Below, in pieces: positions 1 to 44,841 of a stretch of 64,000 nucleotides of DNA. The position numbers and the translations under genes are program-made. The notes under the pieces are model-generated. The model ran no database searches, was not told the DNA's origin, and saw nothing but the letters and a program-made list of their open reading frames with translations. Each line of letters opens with the position of its first letter. The stretch's first letter is position 1. This stretch comes from Marsupella aquatica (taxonomy: Eukaryota; Plantae; Marchantiophyta), in NCBI GenBank assembly GCA_973895155.1, contig OZ316899.1, forward strand, positions 7,195,241-7,259,240, given 5' to 3'.

Positions 1-222
1 AATTTAGCAGGGTACATCAATAGTACCACAGGTAGAGATAGAGGTTTGGAGGCTAATGTAGAGTGGATTCAAATGTTTGGTCCACCTAGACATCCATATT
101 TTGTGAAACATATGGACGATCATACCATGACAGTAGCTGTTAGGACCATTAGAGCTGGTGAGGAGTTATTATGTGAGTATGAGTGGGATGCACCAAAATT
201 GTCCTTGCATTGTCGTCCATGA
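1..222 (+). CDS. C-terminal part of a SET-domain protein (runs off the window start)
   Basis: Frame +1 is open from 1 to TGA 220-222: NLAGYINS...ANVEW...VAVRTIRAGEELLCEYEW. This matches SET motifs III/IV (N-x-A-x-x-IN-(H)S; a-r-x-I-x-x-GEEL-x-x-Y). It is absent from the ORF track because no start codon lies in the window. Confidence 0.75.
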   Translation, partial: NLAGYINSTTGRDRGLEANVEWIQMFGPPRHPYFVKHMDDHTMTVAVRTIRAGEELLCEYEWDAPKLSLHCRP

Positions 223-387
223 TAGTTTCTTGGACTTACATACATGTATATATATATGTCAGTTTATTTTACATGTTTACATGAGAATGATGTTGTTCAG
301 CAGTGCATGTGTTGATGAGATTAATTAATTGATGTTGTATGATAGAATCAATATGTAACGCCTGATATTGGGGTAATATCACGAGCT

Positions 388-3300
388 ATGCGACAACACC
401 TTGTTGAGGCCATGGTGGCCAACCGTGGGCATGAACCGCAAAGGCAAGAGGATGGGGTACGACATGATGGTGATGATCCTATCCAAGACCATCTTGATGA
501 GGAGAGGGCCATGGATGAGCTCATGGACCAATTCTATGATGATCACGATGATATTGGTTTGGAGGACATTGGTTCAACCCATGAAAGGACTAGTCATCCA
601 CATCCTTCTAGGGGGTCCCAAGACAAGCAATGGGAGGAGGTGCAACGTCATGCCCGTACTCGCATATTTGAGGGGAGTAGGTTATCTCGGCTCTCATCAA
701 TAATGTTGTTGCTCAACTTGCAGCAAAGACATAGGGCAAGCAATCTACTTTTGGATGATGTTTTTCGTACCTTGCATGGTCGTATTTTGCTAGTAGGCAA
801 CGCATTGCCAGCCTCTTGGAAAGAGGCTAAACAGGTGTTGAGGTCCATTGGCCTGAAGTATGAGGTGATACATGCATGTGTGGATGATTGCATTCTTTTT
901 AGGGGTGAGCATGAAAATGCCACTACATGTCCTAAATGTCAGAAGCCATGGTACCGTGATGACATGTTGACGGGGAAGGTACCGCAAAAGGTTATGAGGT
1001 ACTTTCCTCTTATCCCTTGATTGCGACATCAATTCTGATGTGCAGAGTTGGCTGAGATGATGGTATGGCACTCACAAAATCGTTCTGATATGGTTGTACC
1101 CTCTAGTGCCATGCGGATGATGGTTGACTCTCCTGCCAATCGATTTGTAGAGGATAGATGGGGAGAGTTCAAAATTGACCCACGACATGTTCGACTAGGC
1201 TTGGCAGCAGACGGTATCAGCCCTTTTGCATTGACAGGAAAAGCCAAACCATATTCGGTGTGGCCAGTAGTGTTGACAAACTATAACATCCCTCCTTGGA
1301 TGGCCATGAAGAAAGGTCACCTACTACTCTCCATGATTATTCCGGGTCCTAAGCAAGTTAAAAAGATTGATGTGTACTTGCAGCCATTGATTGATGAGTT
1401 GATACAACTGTGGAGAGGAGTGGATTGTTATGATGGACGTCACAACACAGGAGGTTTATCCCGCATATTTACTCTAAAGGCCATCCTTATGTGGACCATG
1501 CATGATTTACTAGGTATGGTAAACCCTTATTTCCTCTAGTACCTAAACCTTGTATTTAATTGCAATTATGCAGATTTTTGCCTTGATGAACCTTATTTTA
1601 TGAATGTGTTTAATTTTCTATGCACTGGGCAGGGTTTGGATATGTTTCTGGATTGCAAACATCAGGCTATCGAGCTTGCTCTACATGTGGACCCGATTTG
1701 GAGGGGGTGGCCAGGCCCAAGTCAAGTACTCTGCAAAAAATTGTTTACATTGGTCATACTAAATATCTTCCACCAAACCATCCTTGGAGGAGTGATCCAT
1801 TCCTTTATGATACTGATGAGGGCCAACCTGACATTTGTCCTCAACCTCAGCAAAAGGATCCAGCATATTGGAGAGAGGTATGGGGGAGAGTTCAGGATCC
1901 GGGTGATCCATTACCATTATTCAGATGTGGCATGACCCGTTTGTCTGCATTGTCACAATTGCCATATTGGTCAGATATGCCCATTAATCACTTGTTAGAC
2001 CCTATGCACATTGAGGGGAATGTGGGGAAATCATTGATTTGCCATCTATATGGGGAGAAAAATAACAATTGGAGAGAAAGTTGTGAGGAGATGGGGATGC
2101 ATGGTCTTTTGGGTTTTTGGCCATCTTTGGACCCCCCTGGTGCTCCCCCTAGCATCCATCCTCCTTGGGTTTTGACAAGGGCAAAGCGCATTGAGTTTCG
2201 CAGACGTATTGGGTTGATGATGTTTCCCACAGGTTATGGTACCAATCTTTGGAAGGCATTTGGGGGGGAGGATTCTCCAAAATGGCCATCTTTCTTGAAG
2301 ACACATGATTATCATTGGTTGCTTGAACATGTTCTTCCAGTTGCTATTATTGGATTGGGTAGTGAGGAACTTCGTGATGCCCTTTGGTCATTGGATAAGC
2401 TCTTAAGATGGGTATGTCAAAATGAGGATGACATTGCTGCTATGGAGATATTTGGAGTAGAGGTTGTCTGCAAGTTGGAGAAGGCACTCCCTCCCTCATT
2501 CTTTGATGGTCAGGTTCATTTCCTCATACATTTAGTGCGCGAGGTTGCAATTGCAGGCCCAATACATTGTCGATGGATGTATTGGGTAGAGCGTTATATG
2601 GGGGTGATGAAGTCACATGTCTTTAATCGTGCTAGGGTGGAAGGTAGCATTGCGAAGCGTCATCTTGGAGCAGAGAGTATGTTTTACTGTACAAACATAG
2701 TTGCCACACTAGATCCTAGTGCTCCTAGGGGATGGATAGATGAGGCGGCACGAGAGGCTGACTACGAGGATGATAGACTCACTAGGGCATCTGGAGAGTG
2801 TCTCATAGGCTCAGCAGAGCGTTTACAGCTCACAACATTTATGTTGTATAACTCACTCGAGGTTGTCGGGGAGTGGACAACATTTTTTATGAGGAGGAGA
2901 AGCAAAATAGTCGACGCCCACGGTTATTTCCCAAGTTTCACCCATACATGAAGGAGAAGTTGTTAGAAGTGGATGCCCTGGTGGGTACCGGGGAGAGTGT
3001 ATTACACTACCCAAACATGACAGATAAACTTCGTACCTTGGTTCATGGTCCACTACTTATAGTCACGACTCGGACTGCCATGTGGTCAAAGGGGAGACAT
3101 TTTTGTGTGGAACGACTTGATGAGAAGAGGGCAGCTACACGGGATTGTGGGGTGATGGGTTGGTTCACCCAAGATTCCCAGAGTAGCATGTCGAACATGA
3201 ATCCCATTCGCTCCACCGTGGCCCATTATGGGAAGATTGAGGAGATCCTAACAGTGAAGTACCATGCACATATTACTTTGGAGGAAGTGGTATTCAAGTG

Positions 3301-3586
3301 CAAATGGTTCAAGATGAATTTTGTAGGCCACAATCGTACTTGTGAAGATGATGCATGCGGTTTTACTCATTTGAAGACATTCGCAAATAGTGTCATCAGT
3401 TCCAACTGGAGGTCCTCAGATCCCTTTGCCTTCCCACATCACCTTGAGTAATGCTTTTACCTACCCTATCCCAATGACCCCGAGTGGTCCATTGTCATGC
3501 CGTATATTCCCAGATCACGGTCCATAGTCCAAGAGAGACCCAACGTAGTTGTAGTGGAAGATAGAGACATACCCCCCACGAGTTAG
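388..3586 (+). pseudogene. CACTA transposase (Transposase_21/DUF4218/DUF4216-type), disrupted
   Basis: Motifs IHACVDDCILF..CPKC, LAADGISPF..YSVWPV..YNIPP, DPMHIEGN, LKTHDYH, FFDGQVH..RWMYWVERYM, FKCKWF, DPFAFP. GT-AG intron 1514-1632 restores HDLLGFGYVSG. Internal stops at 1018-1020 and 3449-3451, frameshift near 2880. Confidence 0.9.
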
Positions 3587-3794
3587 TATAAATTGTAGAC
3601 CCCACCATCTTCATGTATATTTTTACCGGAACTATCTTTTTATTGGCATTCTATGATTTTTCTCATTGTCCACAATTTCATGCAGTATACATATCTATTG
3701 CTTAAAGTATGCCCCATATCTGAATCCATTAATTCCATGCAACCTAGACATTATAAAACACTAAAGTCCCATACCATATCCCATTCAAATAACA

Positions 3795-4338
3795 TCGGAA
3801 ACATATCGGACACACATCAGTACTGCCAAAGCCAAAAACCCCTTCCCATCCTCAAAGTATCCGATTTTCCGATACTATAACAATCGGAAGCCACTATTCG
3901 ATACTCCACAGATTGGACGCTTAAGCCCGTAGCCAATGAGGGGTCCGATAGCAATTTCAACGGACAGTAACCAATACCTCAGTCTTCGCAAATGATTTCC
4001 ACTGTAATTATTATCGCAAAAATATGTTCGATAAGACTTGTATCGGAAAATGCCCGAAACCAAACCTATCGGAATTAGCTTTCGATACTACTATTATCGG
4101 ACGTCTGAAAAACATGTCGGCTCTCAATTTGTGATACAGGATGTTTCGGACATTGTCCGATATGCGGGGTATTGGATAACGTTTTTGATACAAAACCTAT
4201 CGGATAATAATGTCCGATGTTGGTAGTATCGGAAGTTCCGTAGCTGGGAGTATCGGACGTTTTCCGTTGTGTTTAGTATCGGGTGCGTTGAGAAACGCGT
4301 GTTTTGAGTATCGGAAAAGTACCTAAAATGTACTAGTG
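3795..4338. repeat. CACTA subterminal repeat array (TATCGGA/TCCGATA) and 3' TIR
   Basis: Many direct and inverted ATCGGA/TCCGAT units ending at TAGTG. Confidence 0.8.
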
Positions 4339-4425
4339 AACCCTCAGTATTGACAGCAACTGAGACAGTTACTCACAGGTCAACGACGAAGGCGGCTACC
4401 CCGAGTAGGGACGGCAGATTGCAAC

Positions 4426-7400
4426 ATGATCTGCAAAGACCTGGGAGCGCCGAACATATCTATTGAGATAAACAATTGCACCATTAAGATGGTCCTGGTC
4501 GACGGCAGCGCGGGAGTCAACATCATGACTAAAGAAATGTCGATCAAACTGGGATATCTCACGTATCAACCCACGGCCCGGGCCATCCGATTGGCAAATG
4601 GGGCACGGGTCCTTCCCTTGGGCACGCTCACGCAGGGCTTACTCTTGTAGGGGGCGTTGAGTTCTACCTCAACTTCCTAGTCATGAGGCCGGTAAGACCA
4701 TCCTCTTATCCAGTTCTGCTGGGGAGGCCATGGCTATACGGGGGCAATGTAGTCACGGATTGGGGAAAGAAAGAGTTGCGATTTGGGACACCCACCGTGC
4801 GAGTGTCGTGGGCTTTGGATGACTATCAGGGACAGACACCACAGGGGCCAGAGGAATATGATTCAGAGACCTCGGAGGAAGAAGAGCTCAACATGATAGA
4901 GCTCATCTCATCTCTTTCCGAGGAAGATAATTTTGGGATAGAGGCAACACAAGACACCCACCTCATGAACTACCCAAAGGAAGACACGTGCAACCTCGAC
5001 CTGAGTTCCTCTAACCCCTCGACGGAGGTGCAGCCCGCTCAAAGTCTTAGCCCGAAGGACACGCAGAATGCAGCTCCAGCTAAGCAAGGAGCTGAAGCCA
5101 TTATGCCTACCATCAAACCCTCAAGAAGCAAGGCCACCATGACCTCAGCCAAGATTTCGGGGCGCAAGCATCGGAAGCAAGTATCCTGGGACCCTTCTAT
5201 CCCAATGGAAGAAGACGCGGTCACAGCACCAGACTCAAACCCGACCCCTCTGACGTACAGATGAGTCCGCTTAGCAAAGCTAGACGCTAGCCTGGACCCG
5301 GGCTTGCGTAATCAAGTAGAAGTCATCAGGAAGGAGCACTACCGGAAGTACACCACGGGGATGGATAAGACGTTCAACTTAGGTCACGCCTTGACGGGTG
5401 AGGCCGAGAAATCCATTCAGGCACTACTCAAGGAGTATGAGGATGTGTTTGCATGGAGCCGTCATGACTTGACGGGTGTCTCTCCTGAGTTAGGAGAACA
5501 CACAATCGACCTGAACCACACACGGTACGGCAGCGCCAACGACGTATGAACCCGAGATATTCAATCTTGGTAAAACAAGAAATCGATCGTTTACTGGCCG
5601 TGGATATCAAGTACCCGATAATGGCGAGTGATTGGGTATCTCCCATCGTCATCATGCCGGAAAAGGGAGGCACGGAAGGGAAACCCAAGATCTGCATCTG
5701 TCAGGACTACCGTAAGCTGAACAATGCTACCCAAAAGGACCACTACCCGTTACCCTTCATGGACATGGTTTTGGATATGGTAGCTCGGAATGAAATCTAC
5801 ACCTTCCTTGATGGCTATTCGGGCTACAATCAGATTTGGATCCGCCTTTTGGATCAGCTAAAAACCACGTTCACTACCGAGTGGGGGACATTTGCATTTC
5901 AGAGAATGTCGTTCGGGCTGTGTAACGCCCCAGCTATGTTCCAGCAACTCATGATGAATATTTTCCATGATTTCCTACGGGAGGTTTTGGAAATATTTAT
6001 AGATGACTTTGCCATCTTTGGAATTGTGGCCATGCACCCCGAACACCTACGACGTACTCTACAGCGATGCTGGGAGGTTAACCTTAACCCGTGCAAGTGT
6101 TTTTTTGGGGTAGAAGAGGGAGTGCTGCTCGGCCATCGGGTATCCAAACGGGGTATTGAAGTGGACCAGGAGAAGGTAGCAGCCTGGATGGCAGTAGTGT
6201 TTCCCGTGGATCAAAAGGTTGTAAGATCTTTTCTAGGTTGTGTTGGGTACTATTGCTGGTTCATTAAAGACTTTGCTAGAATTGCGTTGCCCTTAACTGA
6301 GATGATGAAGAAGGACGCGGTGATTGAGGAGACACCTCAGAGACGGATTGCTTTTGAAGAACTCCATAAACGACTCACCACCGCACCTATCATGGTCACC
6401 CCGGACTAGAATAAGGAATTCCATGTGTATGTCGACGTATCCGGGTTCTATATCGGGTCCGTGCTTAGTCAGCTTAATGAGAACGGACGTGACCACCCCA
6501 TCTACTTTGCTAGCCGTCAACTATTCGTAGCCGAGAAAAACTATTCTCCCATTGATTGAGAAGCTATGGGCATTATCTACTCATGTAAGAAGTTTTGACA
6601 CTATCTGCTCGGCTATAAGGTCATATTCCACACGGATCATGATAGCCTGAAATACATGGTCAACAAAGCAGATGTCACGGGACGGATAGCCCGGTGGGTG
6701 TTACTACTGCAAGAGTTTAATTACAAAGTACGGGTTCGACCCGGGAAGGCACACCTCAATGCTGATTTCTTTTCAAGACTGGACGGAGTACCGGTCGAGC
6801 AACCTATTAACGACACCTTCCCAGATGAGGAATTGTTACACATTGGGACGGGAGCGCCAATGTGGTATGGGCCAATCATTATGTTCCTTTTGACTGGGCG
6901 TATCCCCGACGACATCAACCAGGAAGCTGCCGCCGTATTTCTCCAAAAAGCGAGGCCATACATCATGATACGGGGCCACTTACACAAGGAAGGAGTTAAC
7001 GGGAAACTAAGACGCTGCCTGGAGTACAAAGAAACTCTCATTGTGATGCAGGCCTTGCATGAAGAGGAAGCAAGAGGCCATTTTGCGGCTATCACCACCG
7101 CCCAAAAGATTCTTGACTCAGGGTATTGGTGGCCCACGTTGCATAGGGATGTACAGTGCTTCATCAAGGGTTGTGACCTGTGTCAGCGGGCTGGGACCCC
7201 AAGACAAGCTCATCATCACCCCCTCACGTCAGTGCTTCCCTTAGCACCTTTCAAAAAGTGGGGTATTGATTATATCGGGCCGTTCACTCCCGTTACCCAA
7301 AGACGAAGATGCAGGTACATCCTGCTTGCTATAGATTACTCCACCAAGTGGGTCAAAGCACGGGCTACAATGAGGGATGATGCCGCCACAAGCGCACGGT

Positions 7401-7722
7401 TCTTATACGAGCAGATCTTCACCTGGTTCGGGCCTCCATTGGACCGTGGGACACACTTCCTCAATGACACCGTGGCACGGCTTACGGACCGTTACCTAGT
7501 CAAGCACTGCAAGACTACCCCGTATCATCCTAAAGCCAATGGGTTGACGGAGAAAGCCAATGGTATCATTGGGAAGATCCTTAACAAGACAGTAGCCGCG
7601 CACAAAATGGATTGGGATGATAAGTTGTACGCAGCGGTGTACTCGTATAATCTAGCTTACAAGACTACTACGAGTCACAACCCATACTTTCTCGTGTTCG
7701 GCCAACATTTGTTGGTGCTCGT
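4426..7722 (+). pseudogene. G1 pol: aspartic protease, RT, RNase H and integrase core (degenerate)
   Basis: LVDGSAGVN protease; WVSPIV..DYRKLN..FLDGYSGYNQI..IFIDDF RT; integrase WGIDYIGP..DRGTHF..NGLTEKAN; stops and frameshifts present. Confidence 0.9.
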
Positions 7723-10700
7723 TGTCGCAAGGACTTAAAGTTAGGGGCTCCTTGGGCAAATTGCGCATTTCTGGCTGCGATTGGGACAGGCAACAAGTAC
7801 TTTTTGCAGCAAACTCTCACTCCTTTATTTTTTTTACTTTTCTCACAAAGGTTACAATGGGTGCCCTCAAGTAAGCTTGCCCACAAGAGTCTGGTAGCTG
7901 GCCCTACGGCGGGCCGCTACCTCTAACTTGTCGAGCTGAACTCCTCGAGTGACTATCTACTCAAAATCTGATGGTAATGGTAATGGTAATGGTAATGTAT
8001 TATAAGCTCCGGGACCATGAAAGTCAAAGGAGCTGCCACAAAAAGTAAAGTACAATGCAATCAAAGAAAAGAGCAACCAAAAGAGATTGCTCAGAAGAGG
8101 ACAACTATGTCCTCAAAGAAACTATGGACCTAGAGAGCCCTATGGACCTAGAGAGCCCTGAAAGATTTTCCAAACCTATTCTCCTTTCCCTATCCACCGC
8201 AAAGATATATCTTCCAAGTCGCTGAGGGGGCAGACCAAACAATGCATACAAATCTTTCACCAAGATTTGAGATGCCATCCTAACCCCCTCATAAAACTTG
8301 CAAGCAATGAATACATGATATTCATTCTCTATACTAGAGCTATCACATAGTTGACAAACCCTCTTTTTCCTGTCAATATCCTTCCATCTCCCTTGTTCTA
8401 CTTCAAGGTGGTGTGAGCTTAGTCTATACTAAGCAATAAGTTGTCTAAGTTGTACTGAGATAGTGCTAGATAAGTATTCTTGTTCTCAATATTTCTTCAT
8501 GGGGTTCACATCTCTCATGTAGTATTGCTGCCGTGGGCTAGGTTCATGCCAAAGTTTGTGCAAAGCCTTTTGCTCAAGTTTTGCTCTTAGCTTGGTTGGG
8601 TGTGTTGGCCATTCATGTTCAGGAAAATCCCAAGCATGGGCCCACCTGCACACATCTGCATACCACCCTTTAGCTGAAGATGAGCGCAAGGCATGAAAAG
8701 GAAATCTGTTTTCCTCCAACTCTCTTACACGCATGATGTATTTGAGTGTGTGGAAGAGTGCCTCCACCTCCAAAGGAAACAAGCCTGCCTCTGCAAGTGT
8801 AAGTGCATATGGGGTTTGTGACTTGATCCCAAGCTCCATCTCAAGAAATAGCTTTTGCAGCCCCTCAATCTGTTGCCACCCAGATTTAGACACACCTGCT
8901 CCCCAAATTGGTGCTCCATAAAGAATGACTGGTTTCACCAAAGCTCCAAAGAGATGTTTCCTTAACCTCCAAGTGTGTAGACCAGCTCTTTTGCATTTGT
9001 TCATGAATGCATAAAAAGCTCTGTACCCATTGGCAGCCCTAGATTTTACACATGAGGCCCAACTCAAGTTTTGAGAGAACTCCACCCCAAGGTATTTGTA
9101 GGTCCTCACAAATTCCACCAGATTCCCTTGGAAGTAGAGCTCTGGATTTTGTCGTGTGCCAATGCCCAAACACTTGGTCTTCTTGAGGTTGACTACCATC
9201 CCTGTTGCTTGACAAAACTCCTCCAAGGCATTGAGATGTCTTTGCAAAGCTTCTTGAGCATGAGCAAGTAGGACCACATCATCTGCAAATATAAGAAGTT
9301 GGAGGACAAACCTACCCAATTGAGTGCCAACTCCACCATGCTCCTCCAAAATGTTGTGTAGCTGATCAATGAAGATGCCAAAGAGAGTTGGTGAGAGAGG
9401 ACAACCTTGGATCACCCCAAGAGTGCTCCAGATTTCTTCAGAGGTTTCCTTTGAAAGTTTGATGCGCACTTCTTGGTACAATTTAGAAACAGCCAACTTG
9501 AGCTCTTCAGGCACTTCCAACTCCACCATCCTATCCCAAAGCTTGGATCGGGAAACTTTGTCAAAGGCCTTGGAGAAGTCCACAAACAAGCAAAATAATG
9601 GTTTATGTGGAGATTTGGCCTTTTCACACAACACCCTCAAGCAGAGAATGTGATCCATAGTGCTGAGTTCTCTCCTAAAACCTGCTTGTGAAGGTGCCCT
9701 TTTCATCTCACTCTCCAACCAAGAGCTTAATCTGGCTTCAAGTAGTCCTCCCAAAACTTTAGCAAAAGTATTGCCTACCATGATGGTTCTGTAGTTGTGC
9801 ACATCGTCCTTGTTGCCTGCCTTGAAGATAGGCACCACTCTTCTGGTCATCCAAGCTTTAGGTAAACCTAAAGCCATTGCTTGATTCAGCTCATGCACCA
9901 AGTTTGTTAGTAAAGAGGGTCCTCCCCACAAAAGAAGCTCCAAGTTCAGGCCCAACAGATCTTTAGCTTTCCCATGTTGCATGTGGGAAAGATGCACCTT
10001 CACCTCCCTCTCTGTAAACTGAATGGTGTCCCCAAGGGGCAAAGGCATGCCACTAGCATCTGGAAAGAAATACAAGGATGTGACATAGGTTACCAGGTCC
10101 TGGTGATCCAAGGGGGGAGTAGTCTTGCCTGATTGCATTCTCTCCCAAAAACATTTTGGATGTTTGATGAACTCCTCACATAGTGATTGTTGATGACTCT
10201 TCAAGAAGCACCTCTTCTTGTGTTTGATGAAGTTCTTGTACATAGTGAATGCCAAAAGTCTCTTTTCCCCTGAATGTGATCTTGCTTGCATCCTTGCTCT
10301 AGCACAAACTTCTCCTCCTTAGTTCACAAAACCAAAATTTGACTAGCTACTCCACTAGTCTAAACCAGCTCTCACGGAACTCGGGCCTGGACCAACGAGG
10401 CTCCAAACTCAAGAAATCCCCGCCTGGATTGATGAGGCTCCAAACTTGAGAAATCCCCACCTGGATCGACGAGGCTCCAAACTTGAGAAATCCCCGCCTG
10501 GATCGAAAACTCCACACCTGGATCCAACACTCGCACAAAACTCCAAAACCGCCGCACAACATTTGAGTTCCGCAGAACAGAGCGGAACTCACAGAACAAA
10601 ACTCAATAGATCTCAATAGACAACCGCCGACCTCAATGAGCCGAGGCTCAAGTCTTAAGTAGCATCGGAAACCCAACCATCTAGCCTGAGCCAACTGCCA

Positions 10701-26646: not shown

Positions 26647-29600
26647 TGTTGTGTGACAATGGAGAGACTTGCAACTCGCTATTGTGTTCCATTATGGGTG
26701 TGACTTATATAGTCACCATAGGGTTACATGTTGGGGTTGGTGTTAACCCATGTTACCCCTTCAGGATAGGGTTAGGGGTTAACCATGGTCTAGAGTAAAT
26801 GGTTACAACACTTCCCCTTGGAGAGTTTAGGGGTATAAAATCACCACACTACTAACCCTATGTTTATTTTTGGTGCTACCCCATTAAAACCTTCTGCTTT
26901 CTTCATAAGGAAAAAGGGTTCTAGCCACCATTAGTAGGATTTTCTTAAATTTGCACTAAGGTGAGTCTACCTTATAATTTGTCCAAATGTAAAGTTTAAT
27001 TTGGGTCCCCTATTACTAAAACTACTTCCCCTTAGTTTAAATGGGGTGTTTACGATAATAATTATTCTATCTTGTATTGGTATGAAAAATCGTATTCTGT
27101 CTATGTATACAGGAATGAAAGTTTTAGGTTGCATCGTCGTCGAGTCGGCTGTCGTCTGTCGGCTCGAGCTGCTCATTCAAACTGTGGAGTTTCTCTCGTT
27201 TGTGTGTCGACGGGCAGGCGCAATGTCGACAATCTTGTCATGCCGATCGCTGCTACGTGCTTTCGATGGAGGCTGGCGGGTAATGGCTTCGTGAATAGAT
27301 CAGCACAGTTCTCCTGGGAGCTCTTCCAGTGCACATTGATGTGCTGCCCTATCTGTTCATGGGTAAAGAAAAATTTTGGGTCGATATGCTTCGTGCGGTC
27401 TGTCTTCATATATCCTGCATTGATTTGGTCCACGCAAGCTTTGTTATCTTCATGGATAATCGTCGGTTTGGTGAGTAGTGGCTTACCAGTATTCTTGCGG
27501 ATGTGGTTTATGATGTTTCGAAGCCATAGCGCTTCTCTTGTTGCTTCGTAAAGAGCTATTACTTCTGAATGATTGGACGATGTGGTAGTCAAGGTTTGTT
27601 TTGTACTGCGCCATGATATTGCTGTGTTGCCTTGCAAGAAGACATAACCAGTCTGAGATTTCGAGTCATGCGGATCGGATAGATATCCAGCGTCCGCGTA
27701 TCCTTGCAGTTCATCCGGGTTATCATTGGCGAAATACAGGCCCATATCCATGGAGCCTTGAAGATAACGAAATAGTCGTTTGATGCCGTTCCAGTGGCGA
27801 ATAGTAGGTTGGGCGCTATGTCGTGCCAAGAGACTCACTGCAAATGAAATGTCGGGACGGGTGTTGTTCGCCAGATAGAGGAGAGCTCCGATTGCAGATA
27901 AATAAGGCTTGTCTGCATCAAGAAGTGGTTCATTTTCTTGTCTCCTTCTAAACATATCTTTAGTGGTGTCCAGGGATCGCATCTCCATGGGAGTCGAGAC
28001 TGAGTAAGCATTCTGCATGTTAAACTGTCGAAGAATTTTCTTTGTGTAAGTTGATTGACTAATAAACATACCTTGTGGCAGGTGGTCGAACTGTAGACCG
28101 AGGCAATACGTCGGTTCTCCCAGTTCTTTCATTTCGAAGATGCCCTTCATTGTATTAATAGTCTGCTTTAATAGCTTGGGGGTGCCGAACAGATTGACGT
28201 CATCAACATATAGTGCTAATATCACGAACTCAGGTGCTAGGTGTTTTATAAAAATGCAAGGGGCGAGGTCGTCATTTATAAAGCCAAGAGTCTGCATCTT
28301 AGTTTTGAATGTCTGATACCAGATGCGTCCGCTCTGTTTCAGTCCGTTTATTGATTTAAGGACTTGCACAGCAAATGCCTGCTGTCCAGTCCCATATTTA
28401 CCTGGGTACTGGAGTGGTTCTTTGAGTGTGTTGCCACTGCTCAACACTAGGCCTTTAATGTCATCATCAGGGACAATCTGTCGAAGTCCCGACTTCATGT
28501 CCTGACTTAGGGTATGTATATTCTTCCCCTGGATGTGCTCTACCACTCTTTCGAGCAATTCCTTTGGATCTTTCATATATATTTCGGAGTCTAAGACTCC
28601 ATATAGGTACGCAGTTACCACGTCCATGAGTATGTTTTTGAGTTTATGCTTTCTTGAAAAAGATATTAAGTACCTAAAGGTAGTTACATCCATAACTGGC
28701 GAATAGGTTAAATCGTAATCCCTTCCAGGGATTTGGGTGTAGCCTTTCGCTACAAGCCTTGCTCGATATCTTATGACATCTCCTTGGGCATTGCGTTTTC
28801 TAACGAATATAAAACGACTATCTGTATAGTCATTCTTTGGTTGTACAACCTTAACTGGGCCGAATACTTGTCTTTTGATTAATGCGTCCATTTCTGTATT
28901 GATAGCCTCTCTCCACTGTGGCCAATCGGGCCTTTTCTGTGCTTCTTTGATTGTATAGGGATCAGGTGTATCATTTGAGATGGATTGGGCTATATGATAA
29001 GCAAACTGCTCGTCTATTATTGTGTTTGATCGAGCATAAATGTGTCCTGTGTGTGTGTATTGAATAGACATTTCTTCATTATCTGGTGCCCTCTTTTTCT
29101 CTGGTTCGATACTGACCAGATTAAATGTGGTTTCAGTATTTACCGTTTGTGTACGTCTCTGGCGAGGGCGAGAATCAGTGGATCCTAGTGGGCGTCCTCT
29201 CTTCGCCTTAGGTAAGGTTTCCTTTGCTTGAGTTGGCAGCAGCTGAATCCGAGCTGGGGTATTGACTGCTTCAACATGTGATCTGGTCACATTTGCTGCG
29301 TCATTGAAAGCGTCAGGAATCTTTTCCAACATTTCGTGGAGATGTAATAAGCGCCTTACCTCCTCGTCTGCACTTTGAGTTCTTGGATCTTGATTGAGTA
29401 GATTTCTGCTATTCCAATTGAGCTGTACTGGTGTTATGTCGTGTGATGTAGTTGGCGCCTTAAGTAATGAGGGGAAAATTTCCTCATAGAAATGGCAGTC
29501 AGCGTGTCTTGCTTTAAATACATCAGCTGTGCTAGGTTCCAGATAGCGGATAAGAGACGAGGAGTCATGGCCAATATAAATACCTTCTCTCCTCTGTGGG

Positions 29601-34222: not shown

Positions 34223-35909
34223 CTCCTACTCAAGCTCCTCCATCTTGTGATTGCCTGGTCTATTCAACCATCTCCCAGCCGCCCTTATTCTTGACTCATT
34301 CCTGCCTTGTGGTAGCCTCGTCGAAGCGTTTTTACACTTAGTCGGATTTTGTTATTTTGAAAAAAATATAATTCCCCTGGCCCATATTGTACCCACCGCC
34401 AAAAATCACCCATAGGGCTAAAAGGACTTTTGAGTAGATCCATAGATTCTCTGGACATAAGGCTATGTCCTGGTTTACTAAGATCTAAACAAAACCCTAT
34501 AACCAATTTTCTAAAATTAGGTAAAGAGGGTTAATTCTTATGTTTTCCAAAATTCTTCTCAACTTTGAGATGCTCCCAAAAAGTAACCAAAGGTAACCAA
34601 GTTTTCCCACAAGTTTCCAGGTATAGAGTGGACCATATTTAACCTACTTTGCAACTTGGAACCCCTACCTTTTCCCATCAGCTATTTTTCCCGAGACCCG
34701 CTATTTGGTAACTTTAAGTTTTTCCAAAATACTTACAACTCCTAGGTTAAGACTCCACTTGACTTTGTGACTTTTATGTGTGGTCTAGGGACTACCTAGC
34801 ACCTATAGGGTGAGTCTTAGCAAAACTTATCACTCAAAAGTATCGGTCATGTCTTCGGCCTGACTTGCCGACTACCGTAACTTCTTTCTGCCCTTACCAA
34901 ATAACTTACTCAACTCTTGATACTTCTTAGAGAAACATGTCCTCTCCCTCAAATTATTTCCCTACTCTACTTCCCTAGTTATTAAGTTACCCTAAACCTA
35001 ACAACTCTGCTATCACTAAAATTATGTAATTACTACTCCTTGAAAGCAAAAAACTGACGCATTTCCTACTCAAGCCTCTACTGAGCCATTCTACACCAAT
35101 CATTTTGTTAGTCCATGAGTCATGGTTTCCCGTTGCTAAGAGACGTTTAGCTCTATCTCTCAATCCCTCTCCCTCTCTCCCCTCTGACTGCCCAAGTTTT
35201 GCACCAATTCTTCAGTGTCTAGAAAAATGTCCAGGGTGTCTGTCCTATGTCTACATTTCCAAATTAGAATGAAACTACTCTTAAGAAGACTATACTTAGT
35301 GAATCTTCTTTTCCTGTGAAGACATTAGACAAGTGTGCGTCACCTGTAATGGTTTGCATGTTGAACTTACAGGTCCAAATTGTGATTTAATTTTGCTACT
35401 GCCTGAAATTTGTATCTCTTGCCTAAGTCCCAGTTTGCTGGAGTTTTGTTGCTCTCTGTGCTTTGTTGGGCACATTGTTGTGTTTGCCTTGTTTGCTCTG
35501 ATCAGTCTTAGCCTGCTGCGGACAAGGCAGGCAATGAAACTTGTCTATTCAATTTAAAACTTCAGAACCAATGCTTTGCTGAAACTCAATTGTTATTTGT
35601 TCTGTGTTGCCCTTATAGATTTTAAAAAGGCAGGGTGAGTGACCACTATTGGATAGCAAGCGAGGGGTCTGTGCTGCATTTTCATCCTGACAACCAAGTG
35701 TAGAGTTGACTCTTTCTGAATGTTGTAGACCATTCCAATTCATTGTAGTAGCAAATGTCTTTGTACCTTGAATGCTAAATTTTACTTTTTGTGCAGTCTA
35801 CTAAAATGTATAGTCTGTACAGTCTGCTAAAATGTATTGTCTATACAGTCTGCTAAAATGTATTGTTTGTACAGCCTGCTTAATTGTATTGTCTGTCTCA
35901 TGCGTAGGC

Positions 35910-36590
35910 ATGGCACGCCCTAAAATTCAAGCAAAAAAGCGTGTGACAGAGGTGAGCAACACAGGTGTACTTGGGCCACATGCTACTAACTTCTCTGCAA
36001 GTCAGATTTTCCAAAAGGCAGCTCATTGTTATGCCATTTGCAACAATGGTGGGAGCTTGGTCATCTGTGAGGGCCCTTGCATGAGGCATTTCCACCTCAA
36101 CCCAGAGTCTGACCTTGCTGCAAAAAACAACTGTCCAGGGGTGGGCCTCCCGTCAACACACCAGGGAGACTAGATGTGCACTGATTGTTTGGAGAAGCAT
36201 GCTAAGTGTGCACAGTGTGGGAAGTTGGGGTCCTATGAGGGCTCTGTTGATGCTGCACCAGATGTTAGGAAATGTCCAGACCGTTTTTGTGTGAGGTTTT
36301 TCTGTTTTGAGTGTTTGCCTGCTCATGCCACAACTTGCCCACTTCATAGGTGTAAGGCATGTGGTGAGCATGATGATGAGTACTGGGCTGACATAGTCCA
36401 CTGTGCTAGATGCCCCACTATGTGGCACTATCATTGCTTGAAAGATCGTCAAGCAGAGGGTTATGCTTGTGACAGAGAAATCTGTGATCACTGTGCACAT
36501 GGTGTTGATCGATGGATATTTTATTGTCATCGCCATGCCATAGATCCTACTTTGCACACCCCTATCAGAGATCACATTTCTTGGCTTTGA
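35910..36590 (+). pseudogene. EDM2-like composite PHD-finger module (one in-frame stop)
   Basis: AICNNGG..CEGPCMRHFH..C.DC..CAQCGKLGS..CPLHRCKAC..CARCPTMWHYHCL..RWIFYCHRHAIDPTLHTPIRDHI follows the EDM2 PHD region as I recall it (..IYC..HEID..L.TP.RDH). TAG 36171-36173 is in frame. Confidence 0.8.
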
Positions 36591-37273
36591 ACCTAAATAA
36601 TGTACATGCATAGTGCACCTGATGTGGATGTACTCCTTGGAGATTGCAGACATTCCAATTTTGAGAAGAAGGACCTCTGTAGGAGAGGATGCTTAGGCAA
36701 CAATTACCCTAAGTTCATTACTTGTTCCTGGGTACATGCCTTCAAAAACTCCCCTTAAGCCTTCTAGGAACTTTTTTAACTCTGCAATCATTTTGATAAT
36801 GACTTACATGACACTGCTTAAAGTAAATCAGGACTTCTCATTATGAACATATAAGTTAGAAGGCTATTTAATTTGCAAGAATTCCCTTAAAGTGTACCAA
36901 CATTTTGTATTCTGATTGAATGTCCGCCCATTTCCAACATTTGTATGTGGCATCACAAAACAATTGCACTTGTTTTCACCTTCACCATTGTGAAGTCATA
37001 GATTCAAACTATGAGGTGCATCCTTGCAGGTGTCTAGTACGTTTGTCCCATTATTTCTCCAGTTTGGAATCGGAGCAAATACTCACAACAGGACTGGACT
37101 AGACCAACTTAAAAAGGCAGCATTTTAGGGGCCCTCCAATTATCAGGTGAACACATTATCTTCCGGTCTGCAGTGATTAGGTGGGGTGTGTGTACATGGC
37201 CTCTAGGAAACGTACAAAGGTTGACCACCCGCCTCTATTGGCTGGAATCAAAGCCATTTTGATTCCTGGCCAC

Positions 37274-37954
37274 TATGGGTTCACCCAAGTGAGTTGGCCA
37301 ATCGTACAAAAATGATTCTTAGAGTTCCATGGGACTGAAGTCAAGGACATCACTCCACAAACTACACATGTTGTTGCAGGGACATGGCTGGATGTGATGA
37401 ACAAGTGGTCATGGTCCTTCATTGATTCTGCTATTACCAACCAAGGTCTAAAAGTAGTTGAAGTCTCTTGGCTTACCAATTTTGTTAGACATAGGTGTGT
37501 ACAGGGTACTGAGCAATATGAGTTGTGGGAGAGTGAGGAGGCCACTACAGAGGCTTTGGCTGAAAAGGAAGAGTATGAATCAGTGGCAAACAAACCCAAG
37601 CTTGCTTTTGTCCAAAATGGACCTGTTGTCAAAATAGGACACCATCCTATGGTTGTTGATGCTATATTGAATGAGCAGGGCAAGGAGAGAAATAGCATTA
37701 TGAAGGGGTTCAGTGTGGTATTTGCAGAAGAGGGAATTGGGGAGACTAAGTGCAGACTGTACAAGTCCATAGTTGTTGAGCTAGGTGGGACAGTGGAGAC
37801 GAGTCTAACAGAAACCTCCACTCATGTTGTAGGTCTGTCATACATGAAAATATGCAGAAAATGCTTTAAGACAATAGTGCATCATTTTGTCATGAACAAC
37901 AATCTTTGGGTGCTTTCCCTTGATTGGCTTCAACAAACACCCTCAAACATTTAG
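37274..37954 (+). pseudogene. Tandem BRCT-domain ORF
   Basis: Two repeats: FHGTEVKDITPQTTHVV..VVEVSWLTN and KGFSVVF..LGGTVETSLTETSTHVV..VLSLDWL; stops in the first repeat. Confidence 0.65.
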
Positions 37955-38140
37955 GACTTTTGTCTCATTCACTTAAGAATAGGTACATGACTCAGCCACC
38001 TATATTTTTTGATTTCTTGATTTTTTGGAACGTTATGCTGAGTCTTCTGGCAAGTACAGTCGGGGGTGAAATCCTTAACAAGGAGTGTATTTTTCACTTG
38101 CATAATAAAATGACAGGGCATTGAGTGCGTGTGTATAGTG

Positions 38141-41100
38141 ATGGCTCCAAGGTTGCCTCTTCACAACCCATTTAGGATTAGGCATCATGATTCTAAATTG
38201 TGGATGCGTGAACAAGCCCGGGCCGCCCAAGGTAGGAGTAGGAGGATGAGATGCCCATGCACACAGTGCCAAGGATTCAAGTTGTTGAGTTTGAACACTG
38301 TGCACCTTCACCTACTGCGGCATGAAAGGCACCCTCGGTGGAGGGTTTGGCATGTACCAGCAGAGGACAATGAACCGCAGCCACACATTGGACACGGCCC
38401 ACCTGAACCTGACTTGACATTGGGGAAGGTGCAGAAGAGAGGGAGTGGGTGTTTGGGGGCCCAAAACACATCAAAGAAGCTTGCATTCCTATCTACGAGG
38501 GGTCGAACTGCTCCAAGCTGGGTTTTGTCGTGTTGTTGTTGAACATTTGTGGCAATCACAATGTTCCCAATATATTTGTGATAGAGTTGTTGACCTTCCT
38601 GCGCCAAAATGTGTTACCAGATGGTAATTCAATTCCAAAAAATATGTACGAGGCTAGGAAATTGATGTCTAACCTTGGGCTGAACTATGTGTCTATCGTC
38701 ACATGCCCTGATTGGTGTGTTCTCTTTTGCAAAGAGCATGCAGATAAATTGACATGCCCTCATTATGGTAAGCACAGGTACAAGAATGTAGGGAAATGTA
38801 CACACCCTACCAAGGTTCTTCGTCATTTTCCTCTCATTCCTAGACTACAACTTCTGTTTAGATGCCCTGCCATTTCCAAGCTAATGACATGGACTCCTAA
38901 TAACAAGAGCAGTGATGGCCTGCAGCGTCACAATGGAGATTCCAACCATTGGAAATTTGTTGATGAGAGGTGGCCACAGTTTGCTGCAGAGAAGCGGAGC
39001 TTTTGATTTGGTCTATCACTGGATGGAGTAAACCCATTTGGAGACAAAAACAACCATTATCCATGTTGGTCGGTTACGCTGCTAAATTACAACCTTCCCC
39101 ATGGATGACTACAAAGAGGTTTTTTGTGATGATGGTGCTACTAATCCCTGGACCAGCTTTTGTGACCGAGCAATTCATAGATATCATGTTGGCTCCAGCA
39201 GTGGAGGAGTGGAAGACTTTGTGGATAGAAGGGGTGTTAACTCATGATATTCTGAAGGGGCTTCTTCGACCTAGCCCCTTTAGACTGCATGCAATTTGTT
39301 TGCTGGATATAGCAGATTACCCAGGCCATGGCATCATATCTGGACGAGTGACAAAGGGCTATGTGGGGTGCACACCATGTGGGAAAAATGTGACAAGTGA
39401 GTGGTTGCATGCCCTACACAGTATGAAATTTCAGGGGCATAGAAGGTATCTGCCTGTTGATCATCCTTACAGGCATAGACGGTCTCAAATTGCACACTTC
39501 AACAACAAAACAGAGCTTCATGGCCCACCACAGAGGGTCACCAGAGAACAAGTACTGAGGTGGGCAGCCCGAGGGGCAGCCAAGAAGGCTGATTGGGACA
39601 AAAGAGGTGCCACGGTAGAAGAACCTGAGGATCCAATGGTGAAACACGGTGTGAAAAGACAGACCTTGATGGACTTGGAGTTGGAGTACTGGAGGGTAAT
39701 GTACTTAGCCTCCAGCCCCTGCATGATTGCAATTTTAGATTGGAGCAATGGTGGATTGATGTTAGTTACAAACCTCCTATTTGGTTAATTAGTGTTTCTG
39801 TCGTTGAATTCTTTGCTTTGTGGAGTGCAAGAATTCAAGCCCAGCAAACACAATGTGGATGTCATGCACATTGAGAAAACTATTTGCGAGAGCTTGCTGA
39901 CGTTCTTGTCGAGTGAGAAAGATACAGAATTAAGCAGTTCAAGCTGATATGCAACAGGAGGGCATACGCCCTCACCTCTGGTTGAAGCCCCATGCAAGCA
40001 ATCCCAATGTACTTCTCAAGTTCCAAGCTCCCTACGTGTGCACACAGGAAGAATGGAAGACATTCTTGTATAGATTGAGTTGTCTGAAAGTGCCCTCTGG
40101 CTATGCTGGTGCCTTCAAAAAGCATATTACAAAGAATAAACTTGGTAGTATGAAAACACATGACTACCATGTGCTGATGCGGCACATTTTGCCCCTATGC
40201 CTCAGAGGTCTCATGCAAAAACCAGTCCGTAATGTCATTCTTCGACTCTGCAATGTATTCCGCCGTATATGTGTGTAAGTGTGGGATCCCCAAGGATTGG
40301 AGCAGTTGAAGCAGGATGTTGCTTATGTCCTTTGTGACTTGGAGATATACTTCCCCCTGCTTTCTTTGATGTTATGACTCATCTCCTAATCCATGGGTAG
40401 AAGAGCTAGGCCAGTATGGGCCAGTTAGTACCAGATGGATGTACCCTATGGAGCAATACATGAAGTTGTTGAAAGGTCATGTGAGAACATACTACAGGCC
40501 AAAGGCTTCCATGGCATTGGGTACATTAAGGATGAGACGCTAGGGTTCCTAATAGAGTACATGGTTGGGTCTGGTGAAAATGATGGCATGGAGTGAGTGG
40601 CAAGATTGTTGAAGGTGTGGGACATGCTGTGCAACTGTCTGTTGCGATTCAAGACAAGGCTCATTCATATGTGCTGGCGAACACAGAGCCTATGCAACCA
40701 TGGTGGCAGTGAGTGATTGAATTGACTTGCCTTTGTTGTGATGCTTCTTCTCTATTCCAAGCGTGATCTTAGGTTGTCATGTGTTGTTTAGACCTAACTA
40801 TGCCTGTACCTCATATTGCAGGGAATATGATATGCAAAAAGCTGCACACTCTGGACAACAGGATCCCTTCCCACAGTTCGAGCAGTGGATTTGGGTGGCA
40901 ATTCGAGAGCATAGTAGACATCACCCAAATATGGAGAAGGATTTGTATCTTCTATTTGTGCCACCGCAATTTCTATGCTGACCTACAAACGGATGAGAGC
41001 TTACGGAAATCATTATCGAGTGAGGGATGAGCAAGGTGACCATTGTGTATCATATGATTGTGGTTTGATAACTGTGTTTGAGCAGAGAACCTCTGAAGAA

Positions 41101-41581
41101 CAGAGGGGGTGGATGAAGATGGGTTACATGGGGGAGTTGACAGACATTTGGGTCTTGAATTATGGTAACACAAGTGTCCTTGTAATATTGATGAAGGGAG
41201 CATGGATGAAATCAGAATGGTAGAGGCCAAGGGCCACCATGAAGCGTGATCCTGATGGGTTCTTGTTGGCCAATATATTTTAGGTCCAGAGTACCAGAAT
41301 GGTCTGAGCCTTTTGTTTTCCCTAGCCAAGTTGAACAGGCTTTCTTTCTAGATGTGGAGGGGTCACATGACTGGAGGGTGGTATGCCATAGCCAAGCACG
41401 GAACAGGCGGATGGATGGAAGTAAAGTAGAGTTCAGTTTGGACAACCATGTTGCATTCGAGCATCCTAGTCAGGAGACTGTACTTCCAACTCGGGCAGGG
41501 ACCGACTACATCCCGTTAACATTGAGAGAGACATATGAACCTGGGGAGATGGAATATGATGAGGTTGATGATGTGCAATAG
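38141..41581 (+). pseudogene. CACTA #2 transposase (transposase-associated CPC..C domain, Transposase_21, DUF4218, DUF4216), degenerate
   Basis: RCPCTQC..VHLHL; CPDWCVLF; DGVNPFG; ADYPG; MHIEK; MKTHDYH; EPFVFPSQVEQAFF; many frameshifts. Confidence 0.9.
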
Positions 41582-41763
41582 GCAACAGCTGGTGATTGAC
41601 AAGTATGAGGTTGAGGATGACTACCTGCACAGAGTCACAGAACGGGAATTGCTTCCTAGAATGATGTTTTAGGATAGTTGGATATGCATGAAATTGATTC
41701 ATACTTTGAATTTAGTGTGTTGATTGATTGTCCCTGTTTGGTTGTGGATGTTGTGTAGAAGCT

Positions 41764-44700
41764 ATGGGGGAAGAGGATGATGACATGGAGACTGACATGG
41801 GGCTTGGAGAGTGGGGTGAAGAGGAAAGATTGGATATGGGTGGAGACCCAAATGCAGGGGGCTCACAGAAAAATGCACCTATGCAGGATGCACAGGGCCC
41901 ACGTCAAGTGCCAGGTAGGTGGGCAGCCAAAGAGAAATCACATAATCCATACCCTAGAAGGAGCCAGAGTTATTGGCAAGGGACGCCTGATGATAGGCAA
42001 TATGATGATGACTACAATGGAGCAGAAGACGGATAGGATGAATATGAACACCCAGAGCGTGGTAGAGATGGGTACAGAGGACAATGGCAAGATGATGAGG
42101 ATGATTGGACAAGTAAGTGCCTTGTGCTTGTGATTTTGTGATGTTAGTAGAGATTGTAGCTCAATATGGACTAATCTTATGTCTGGGGCAAAGAGTTTAT
42201 CTTACAGGTCCATGAGTGTGGCATGTGCAGACTCTGATTGGGACAATCATGAAAACAACAAAGGCCATCCATGTTCAGATAGGAGGCAATCATTCACAGG
42301 CGGGAGAAACCGCCCTAATTCATCAAGACAAGGCAATTGGACAGGTGGTCGAGAACCATCTATGCGCCCAGGGAGAGGTACTTGGTCATTGCAGCATTGT
42401 TGTTCAGTATGTTCAGTGTATAGCATGGCAGCAATATTGTTGCTTCATACTTAAAAAACGGATCCTGTAAATGTCCAGGGACTCCAGGGAGGTTTGGACA
42501 ATGCAATCCAGGCCGTGGGGGGAGAGCAGGCCGTGGGGGGACTCCAGGCCGTGGAGGGACACCAGGCCTGGAGGGACACCCAATAGCGCTTTGGGGAGTA
42601 CCAAGGGAGGAGACAATAACAAATTTGGTAAAGTAGAAGTGAATTCTGATGGTTGGATAACTCCCACATGTGATGGCAAGAACCGTTGGCATTCTGACTT
42701 GAGAGGAGAAGTATTGCGCTGGTTATATTTGAGCATTACAGAGTTTAGAAGTCAGAACAAAGCCGATTGGGCTGCTATTTTCAAGGACATTCTTGAACGG
42801 TGGGACTATGTTGGTAATGATAGTAAGGGCCCAGTTGAAGATTGCATATCAGATTATGCAATGAGGATTTTGAAACAAGAGAGACATAGGTTGAAAAAGA
42901 TGTGGATAGACAATGGTTCTAACAGGAGAATGCCAGCACCCCCATCACTGGAACTGGATCAATGGACACGGTTAATCAAAGGGTTCATGTCGGAGGTTGG
43001 GCAGAGCAAGAGTGAACTGCTATCAAATGCTTGAGGCAAAGTGAAACACCTTTCACAGACTGGGAGAGGAAGTTATGCTCCAGTGAAAGAACAACTGGTA
43101 AGGCAGTGACATGTTTGATAGTAAACCTCTAACTTATCATCTTGTACCATTATTACATTTTCATTGACAATCAACACTTGGTTTCATTGACATGTATGTT
43201 GATGTGGCATGCAGAAGAAATTGACAGGTGAAGAACCATCAGCACAAGAAGTGAGAGAGGAGTTCATGAAACAAAGGAGTGAGGTGACAAGTGTCAATTC
43301 CAAACAGGTGATTATGACAGTTATATGAGATATGTGCCTTGGTGTAATGTCAGGGAACTGTTACAACTCTGACAGAGATGTGTGAACGGTTGAAGTCATT
43401 AGAGTGTGGACTCCCTCGAGTGGAAAGTAAATTGGGTGATCGCTTGGATATTGTGGAGGCATCTATAGCAAACCTTCTTGCATCAGTGGAATCTAATTTC
43501 AAGCTTGTAATTGAAAAATTGGGTGGTTCCCAACCGCACAGTGAGGGCAACCTTGTACAAAGTGTGTCTTTGTTCACAAAAAAGGGAATTGGCAAATCTG
43601 ACACAGGTATCGAAATGACACCTATATTGTTCATTGTGCCATGAGATGGAAATGTTACAACTAGGTTTTCATGAATGGTTTGAATGCAAGAACAGCGGAA
43701 GCATTGAAGGCAGATGTTTTTTGTAAGCAGAAGGGCAAGAAGGTTCTTGAGACTGGTAATATGCTATGATTCAATAGTTTACATTTAAAAAGTGCATGAA
43801 GTTTGGTCAAGCTTAAGTTACAGTGAAAGGTAATCTTTACTGTGTCACCTTGGTTGGATGAACAAAATTTGAAGTGACATTATGATTGATGTATTAGGTG
43901 ATTCAAAGACAAATAATGAAAAAGATGTGCCCAGTGCCTCAGTGTCCATAGCCAACCTGGAGGTATTAGGTACGCTTATGCTTTAAATTCCTGTATATGA
44001 ATGTTGTGAGACAATTCATTGGTTAACAGATTCAACCTGAATATTGTGGTGTGTTTATTTTTATTCATTTAGGATCAGCAGAAGCAGACATGGAGGATGT
44101 GGCAATGGCAAAGAAGGGGAAGAATGTTGTTCATATTGGTAAGGTGATAGTGACAAGTTTGTGGTTGGTGACATTACATTTAGCACATATGATTAGTGAT
44201 TGACTTATGCACTGAACAATGCACTGAATTCTAGTTGATGCAGAGTTGACAGACTCTCAACCAAGTGGGAGCAGGGTGAAGCGATGCCAAAACTTGGGAG
44301 CAACATTGGATGCAAGTAACATTGTACATGCTTTAATTGAAGCAAGTACAATGTTTGCATATACTCAGATGATGTCGCAGGGAAATCCTGCTACACAATT
44401 GGAAGTGTCAAATATGGATGCAGATTCTTTGAAGAAGAGTGTCCCCGATTCTCGATCACCAGCACAAAACACTTGTGCCAAAGTATGACTCGCAATCAAG
44501 GTATGAACAATGTCATGTATAAGCCACCCAGAAAAGCCAAGAAAAACAGCCAGGGTAAAGTGGAGGTGATGGTCACAGCAGAGCCAGTCCATAATCTTCT
44601 ATCATGGGAGGATGACTCACAGGTATGTGTGGGTACAGGCATTTTACGACCGGATCATGCTAAATTCCATGGCAAAGTGGTCCCGGATGACCATGTAGTA

Positions 44701-44841
44701 GTGTTATTGACTACAGTGATTGTATCTGATTGTAATTTGCCATTTCCAAATAGAGCAGATGATCCACCTCAGGAAGTAATTGCAAATGCAATAGGATCTC
44801 TTGTGCTTTGGCCATCAGAGTGTGTTTGTCTCCCGTATTGA
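41764..44841 (+). pseudogene. CACTA TnpA-like accessory gene (multi-exon)
   Basis: Acidic low-complexity N-terminus, SRPWG(D/E) repeats, W..L.G..RW..PP..QW..L central region, C-terminal HGK..P.DHV.V....LPFP..IGSLVLWP typical of En/Spm TnpA/Tnp1-like proteins. Confidence 0.6.

Follow-up and report, generated by a model that had tools for sequence, protein, structure and literature searches.

A long-resident SET-domain gene in a bryophyte CACTA transposon lineage, probably nested within the transposase gene

SET-domain genes are known as cargo from several groups of DNA transposons. Red-algal Plavaka elements, which belong to the EnSpm/CACTA superfamily, are reported to have kept for a long time an accessory gene with a SET domain (PF00856), PAG2 (bioRxiv 10.1101/2025.02.11.637652, hereafter the Bostrychia preprint). 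PAG2 is described there as a fusion of an N6-adenine DNA methylase with SET, encoded in a three-gene PAG1-3 cassette within Plavaka elements of 17-19 kb, and its chromatin role is put forward as a proposal. PMC12730594 credits Kojima and Jurka (2014, Repbase Reports) with SET-bearing families of HarbingerS and Phytophthora MuDR, and SET capture by Helitrons is cited in the Bostrychia preprint. Transposons also encode epigenetic accessory proteins of other kinds. VANC of VANDAL elements has been shown, and TET/JBP proteins of fungal EnSpm and other transposons have been proposed, to counter silencing, as summarized in PMC12730594. For plants, the Bostrychia preprint describes VANDAL/VANC alone as a transposon-encoded modifier of its own silencing state. 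Finally, Spm elements yield two products, tnpA and tnpD, through alternative splicing (PMC8195511).

Here we describe a SET-domain exon next to the transposase gene of a CACTA element in the liverwort Marsupella aquatica. The locus resembles PAG2 in that an EnSpm-superfamily element has long kept a SET gene, and is set apart from it, going by the published description of PAG2, by a SET domain with no methylase partner, in a tnp2-type plant CACTA, that is predicted to be nested within the transposase gene. It resembles the HarbingerS, MuDR and Helitron cases as a DNA transposon with an accessory protein like SET histone lysine methyltransferases; those cases differ in superfamily and host, and the likeness is one of description and not of SET sequence. 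VANC and TET/JBP are likewise encoded by the element itself, but they act on DNA methylation, whereas a SET protein would methylate lysines, and they have no sequence relation to it. The predicted layout also recalls maize En/Spm, where tnpA and tnpD come from one alternatively spliced CACTA transcript (PMC8195511), except that a SET protein, from an exon ahead of the transposase core, would here take the place of the second product. A literature search, with coverage outside Repbase Reports and most subscription journals, returned no report of SET cargo in a land-plant CACTA element.

The window, by which we mean the whole stretch analysed, is 64,000 nucleotides of contig OZ316899.1 (assembly GCA_973895155.1, forward-strand positions 7,195,241 to 7,259,240). 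Features of its two CACTA elements, here called CACTA #1 and CACTA #2, are collected in Table 1. The copy of CACTA #1 is seen from the tail of the SET exon to the 3' end, and its 5' part falls outside the window. Its open reading frames match Transposase_21 (E = 7.8e-40), DUF4218 (8.6e-27) and, weakly, DUF4216 (0.073), and these tnp2 domains together with subterminal repeats in two orientations mark it as a CACTA/EnSpm element. The putative 3' terminus is followed directly by AAC, the expected and putative target-site duplication, and one X4 contig tracks window positions 4136-4340 and then diverges for 25 letters. Related contigs diverge in sequence across 1516-1631, within the predicted tnp2 intron. 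Besides the two in-frame stops listed in the table, the tnp2 gene has a frameshift near 2883 and an additional stop at 3449-3451, so this copy is unable to make its own transposase. A TnpA-like open reading frame was not found between tnp2 and the 3' end.

Table 1. Coordinates of CACTA #1 and CACTA #2 features in the window (a slash marks a predicted splice boundary).
Feature	Position	Strand	Remarks
SET-domain exon, 3' part, cut by window edge	1..222	+	73 codons and stop; motifs N-x-A-G-Y-I-N-S and G-E-E-L-x-x-x-Y-x-W
AT-rich spacer, predicted intron tail	223..345	+	phase-0 acceptor ATAG/AAT at 345/346; first AG opening the tnp2 frame
tnp2 (TnpD-type) coding exon with Transposase_21	346..1513	+	in-frame stops 1018-1020 and 1036-1038
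Predicted GT-AG intron of tnp2	1514..1632	+	same place as in locus L003
Remaining tnp2: Transposase_21 end, DUF4218, weak DUF4216	1633..3590	+	3' coding end approximate
Subterminal repeats TATCGGA/TCCGATA, both orientations	3804..4315	.	11 of 13 copies found across the window
Putative 3' terminus GTACTAGTG (reverse complement CACTAGTAC)	4330..4338	+	TAGTG at 4334-4338
NSD-type PHD cluster, upstream of CACTA #2 tnp2	35889..36590	+	in-frame stop 36171-36173
BRCT, upstream of CACTA #2	to 37951 (PHD/BRCT block 35889..37951)	+	Pfam
CACTA #2 tnp2, own Transpos_assoc motif at start	38114..41600	+	end approximate

Other mobile elements share the window. A decayed gypsy-type LTR element (reverse transcriptase, RNase H and integrase; 4339-7740) starts directly after the 3' end of CACTA #1. 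An apparently intact and very recent copia LTR retrotransposon occupies 26647-32433 on the minus strand, with identical 164-nt LTRs, a 5-bp GATTC duplication and a single gag-pol reading frame of 1548 aa. Two LINE reverse-transcriptase segments 47 kb apart (8907-10307 and 56180-57580) are 99.6% identical over 1401 nt, and the second contains an endonuclease domain.

Frame 1 of window positions 1-219 encodes 73 residues, NLAGYINS...IRAGEELLCEYEW, closed by a TGA stop at 220-222. The Pfam SET profile matches this fragment alone at E = 0.0079 and 17 bits, below the cut-off of 22.4 because the window edge truncates the domain. Among its Atlas matches, 28 of 30 are clusters that contain SET members. 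From 1.84 billion cluster representatives, a search retrieved 23 relatives at 39-82% identity (E <= 0.001). The closest, P0034 (82%), scores 25.3 bits against SET, above the cut-off, and the protein-family tree pairs it with the window fragment (support 98/82); having no host outgroup, the tree is uninformative on the origin of the SET domain. A Pfam scan of 22 relatives gave a SET match at E <= 0.1 for 21, 12 of them above the cut-off, and none for P0044; in a separate scan of nine relatives, six exceeded the cut-off. Sequence searches of solved structures with the fragment or with P0001 gave chance-level matches only, and the family profile gave weak SET matches (best E 0.024). The fold was modelled for P0004 from 30 sequences (pLDDT 85.8, pTM 0.76), replacing an earlier eight-sequence fold (pLDDT 54). 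In a Foldseek comparison with the PDB, all listed matches of this model are SET domains or SET-containing complexes, with E-values of 3e-7 to 2e-5 and probability 1.0. The initial annotation had read positions 1-222 as a SET C-terminus and named the lack of a profile match as grounds for discarding that reading; P0034 and other relatives score above the cut-off, and together with the predicted P0004 fold they confirm from sequence that the window begins with the C-terminal part of a SET domain.

The family to which this fragment belongs stands outside the canonical plant SET classes. None of E(z), ASHH, ATX/TRX, SUVH/SUVR or ATXR5/6 appears among the 23 relatives, and the P0004 model matches MLL1, SETD8, NSD1, ATXR5, G9a and LegAS4 at 16-24% identity, with no preferred class and none of the matches pointing to a particular substrate. 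With roughly 20% identity to every solved class and no canonical SET protein among its relatives, the SET domain looks like an old resident gene. The family has the fold, the GxG motif, the Asn and the final Tyr in common with these solved SET domains and with those of giant viruses, and differs from them in having N-S for N-H, a conserved family-specific N-terminal extension and no Cys-rich pre- or post-SET region. No reader domain was found in the family SET proteins, and no methylase domain in any relative scanned with Pfam; the domains found in the scanned relatives are SET and, in one, Transposase_21. The only organism names attached to 28 clusters examined are Sphagnum troendelagicum, S. 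balticum and Riccia sorocarpa, and the S. balticum member, P0033, is itself not a SET protein. Pattern scans of IMG/VR and GTDB contigs yielded no viral or prokaryotic relative, and 50,697 phage records held none. Giant-virus SET clusters are nearest by Atlas features (0.95); with viral structures matching the P0004 model at 9-20% identity, this link is a lead only.

We next consider whether the SET exon is part of the element. A metagenome scan yielded 34 related loci, of which 33 apparently belong to one peat-moss family and one, L001, to a second subfamily; 15 of the 34 match the tnp2 N-terminus of the window itself. The 3' part of SET is present in 24 loci, 20 of which extend at least 250 nt beyond it. 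A tnp2 exon lies 140-150 nt past the SET stop in 19 of these 20 informative loci, although such locus counts do not represent independent events because copies share descent and some loci are one site (L007/L031 and L028/L030 are same-site pairs, and L007 and L018 share lesions). The exception, L022, is interrupted by another insertion. In L022, L028 and L030 the SET exon is interrupted and tnp2 is absent over 4.4-10 kb downstream. The first tnp2 homology begins 307 nt past the end of SET in the window, and some 318 nt past it in the peat-moss family. The linkage also reaches a second liverwort, as the Riccia sorocarpa gene model P0041 consists of SET followed by Transposase_21 and resembles CACTA #1 (SET 47%, tnp2 50%) more than CACTA #2 (tnp2 41%).

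In the related copies the SET exon lies inside the element. Five loci extend more than 3.8 kb upstream of SET, and in four of them the 5' terminus, CACTACAACAAC, is found at a distance of 3.5-3.8 kb. At those four, which represent three insertion sites with different flanks, homology ends exactly at CACTA; the fifth, L029, has a 2.5-kb insertion. The 3' terminus is in none of the fetched loci, and no locus has both ends. L009 has a TCGCAAA cluster at its 5' end, and the stretch from its CACTA terminus to exon 1 contains charged, low-complexity reading-frame pieces on the minus strand (7150-9171). These pieces diverge from the SET/tnp2 unit and are possibly a second element gene; they have no meaningful Pfam match and no BLAST match to the second open reading frame of CACTA #2. 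In the window itself, contigs from three runs with depths of 1778, 319 and 527 span positions 136-323, 147-389 and 172-389. They cross the SET stop and so join the SET tail to the spacer in abundant sequence, and none of the three extends into tnp2 by 31 letters. Summed contig depth, which is not a copy number, is similar over SET and tnp2. The earlier proposal that SET travels with the CACTA element thus holds in the related copies, where SET lies inside the 5' terminus, and we are highly confident that the same residence and ancient linkage extend to the copy in the window.

The related loci also reveal how the gene may be built. The SET exon is preceded, at a distance of 113-118 nt, by a short exon 1 with the motif CxCxxC-G-x11-H-x5-RH; in the peat-moss family this exon 1, where present, is 78-95% identical to Sphagnum P0028. 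Exon 1 alone has no Pfam match. It aligns with the Pfam-positive Transpos_assoc domain of CACTA #2 at the invariant residues C38, C40, C43, G45, H57, R63 and H64, and its motif is present in Riccia P0082 as well. The N-terminal CxCxxC motif is absent from the CACTA #1 tnp2 exon in the window. Exon 1 ends in a phase-0 GT donor in all 18 of 18 loci, and a phase-0 AG precedes the SET exon in 22 of 27 rows (likewise in L001, two codons earlier). A second phase-0 acceptor, ATAG/AAT, precedes the tnp2 exon in 18 of 19 peat-moss-family rows. The same 7-mer stands at 1999-2005 of L001, at the contig end (chance 0.033 by shuffling), and at 345/346 of the window, where the shuffling chance of 0.016 is a post hoc value. 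It is thus common to three families, of which that of the window is the third and more distant. This arrangement suggests an alternative last exon, SET, within the first intron of the transposase gene. The simplest reading, in our view, is one transcript with two outcomes, in which exon 1 would be joined either to SET, ending at its stop, or to tnp2. The tnp2 coding exon then probably starts at the acceptor at 345/346. The initial annotation had placed the transposase 165 bp past the SET exon; this is the correct distance from the SET stop to ATG 388, the next ATG in the tnp2 frame (within the open reading frame 346-1020), and probably not the distance to the coding start.

We propose that CACTA elements of bryophytes have long housed a SET gene, expressed as an alternative last exon, whose product is likely an S-adenosylmethionine (SAM)-dependent lysine methyltransferase that would mark the chromatin of the element itself, and we give this explanation as a whole about an even chance of being correct. 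One promoter would drive a transcript whose exon 1 codes for the small Cys/His motif usually found at the start of CACTA transposases. Use of the near acceptor would give a motif-plus-SET protein of about 350 aa, and skipping the SET exon would give the full transposase. At copies of the element, the SET product would then add methyl groups to histones or to a host silencing factor, and these copies would stay expressible. The parts of this scheme differ in strength. A splice switch between SET and tnp2 is likely, judging from the DNA, and methyltransferase activity of the SET domain is reasonably probable, while a histone substrate with an anti-silencing role, suggested by analogy, is tentative. 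In the most far-reaching form of the scheme, the CACTA lineage would date back to the moss-liverwort split, its transposase gene would yield a histone methyltransferase through the alternative splice, and the zinc-motif exon common to both products would direct this writer to copies of the element; we consider this form speculative and rather unlikely.

The conserved residues of the SET domain bear directly on its activity. In the window the canonical FINHS reads YINS-T, and the absence of the His from the NHS motif, recorded in the initial annotation, is confirmed and extends to the family, with Ser in its place in all 30 of 30 proteins; the loss is a family-wide trait by alignment and not decay. 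In the consensus H/RxxNHxC, the family also has Gly for Arg in 29 of 30 proteins and lacks the Cys in most. This putative correspondence of motifs is taken from a reading of the alignment against the usual SET motifs. The SAM-binding Asn is kept in 30 of 30 aligned proteins, the final, catalytic C-terminal Tyr in 29 of 29, and the GxG in 24 of 27 and 26 of 27; 8 of 26 have Phe for the FPY tyrosine. Among catalytic residues the window fragment itself holds the Asn and Tyr only. In the ternary complex of SET7/9 the His is turned outward, and in MLL3 the Asn side chain binds SAM (PMC5094779), so loss of the His alone is no proof of inactivity. The FOG1 study (PMC4146578) calls H/RxxNHxC important, yet notes active PRDM proteins that suggest substitutes exist.

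The strongest competing explanation accepts a resident, selected SET domain and takes it to be catalytically dead or directed at something other than histones, either as a lysine-binding or scaffold module or as an enzyme that methylates the transposase or another protein and so tunes transposition. Inactive SET domains do exist, MLL5 being one (PMC5094779), and the invariant loss of the His and Arg of H/RxxNHxC, together with the want of a reader or Cys-rich post-SET domain, is in keeping with this; the exon in common with the transposase could also place SET in the transpososome. A dead domain fits poorly with the retention of GxG, Asn and the final Tyr, whose loss kills MLL5, across sequences 31-65% identical to P0004, and with a fold that is predicted to be complete. 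We judge this alternative unlikely, while giving it appreciable weight.

A second alternative changes the gene model and leaves the residency of SET intact. SET could be a separate gene with its own start upstream of the transposase, with tnp2 translated from ATG 388 and the splice signals incidental. The SET reading frames do have an in-frame ATG directly past the acceptor, database proteins of 236-324 aa begin with Met, and an ATG is present at 388. Under this model, tnp2 would be left without the N-terminal Cys/His motif, which precedes SET instead, and the conservation of the acceptor 7-mer in three families would go unexplained; we regard it as improbable. The nested arrangement, with SET as an alternative last exon of the transposase gene, remains our preferred gene model.

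Selection on the SET domain was gauged at two depths. Between subfamilies, L001 compared with five peat-moss-family copies gives dN/dS of 0.22-0.37 (161 codons; every 95% interval stays under 0.6), which implies selection on the SET protein in the transposing lineages. Within the peat-moss family, the median dN/dS of SET is 0.84, against 0.57-1.14 for tnp2 controls, and 8 of 20 SET cores contain a stop; by these measures the copies decay almost neutrally, as in post-insertion decay. Comparison of the window fragment with the metagenome loci (dN 0.58, dS 1.05, about 61 codons) is too saturated for use. CACTA elements often take up host fragments (PMC8195511), and a Pack-type passive capture, in which a recent host SET fragment was amplified with no function, would agree with the near-neutral evolution within the family. 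It is largely refuted by the complete domain and its constant neighbour across moss and liverwort, by the between-subfamily dN/dS and by the family matches, which include no canonical host SET, and we consider it very improbable. The capture of epigenetic machinery suggested by the initial annotation is, in the sense of a recent host gene, unsupported, given the same lack of canonical plant relatives and the low identity to solved classes. That SET belongs to an adjoining host gene or another element and merely abuts CACTA #1, whose 5' end is outside view, is scarcely credible given the matching SET-tnp2 spacing in the peat-moss family and the high-depth contigs that cross the SET stop.

The second CACTA element in the window provides a comparison. 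Its PHD fingers score at best E = 5.4e-6 and 26.9 bits, just under the cut-off of 27, and its BRCT domain E = 6e-9. The PHD protein has two database relatives at 73-81% identity, and other copies read through the PHD stop at 36171-36173. PHD, BRCT and tnp2 have similar summed contig depth, a sum that is not a copy number, and among the contigs listed none bridges BRCT to tnp2 by 31 letters. The reader-type PHD/BRCT cargo is, by sequence, real and repeated, and is placed upstream of tnp2. The earlier view that two CACTA families carry chromatin genes stands to this extent; the termini of CACTA #2 were looked for and not found, and a position of PHD/BRCT inside the terminal inverted repeats is unsupported. 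Nor do the two cargoes occupy the same position, as had been claimed, since in relatives SET lies downstream of exon 1, whereas PHD/BRCT lies upstream of the corresponding exon, Transpos_assoc, of CACTA #2. The PHD cluster is a stand-alone frame of about 230 aa with very high summed depth and may be common to more than one element family. Downstream of CACTA #2 tnp2, further spliced and broken reading frames (42471-44841) have no Pfam match and, on the layout that we take to be usual for CACTA elements, could be a TnpA-like gene.

Taken together, the old, selected and transposon-resident SET lineage of bryophytes is real, and it is probably nested in the transposase gene and probably an enzyme. 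As a SET lineage of its own, the family falls into no known class. It includes four gene models of Riccia sorocarpa that carry a SET domain-containing annotation (P0041, P0045, P0053 and P0082), and the Transposase_21 domain of P0041 and the exon-1 motif of P0082 indicate that the Riccia models are probably transposon parts. Models named 'SET domain-containing protein' in Riccia and Sphagnum should be read with this in mind, as they can be parts of transposons. A SET enzyme kept by CACTA elements, small, encoded by a single exon and predicted to be well folded, would be a histone-level counterpart of VANC in mosses and liverworts. PHD/BRCT readers may be carried by a sister CACTA family of this genome. 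The SET protein could be expressed by itself and assayed, and moss and liverwort models are usable for such work. If the most far-reaching form of the proposal is true, the element would be the first transposon of land plants to encode its own histone writer, of a SET class undescribed before, and one splice choice would decide between jumping and writing a chromatin mark.
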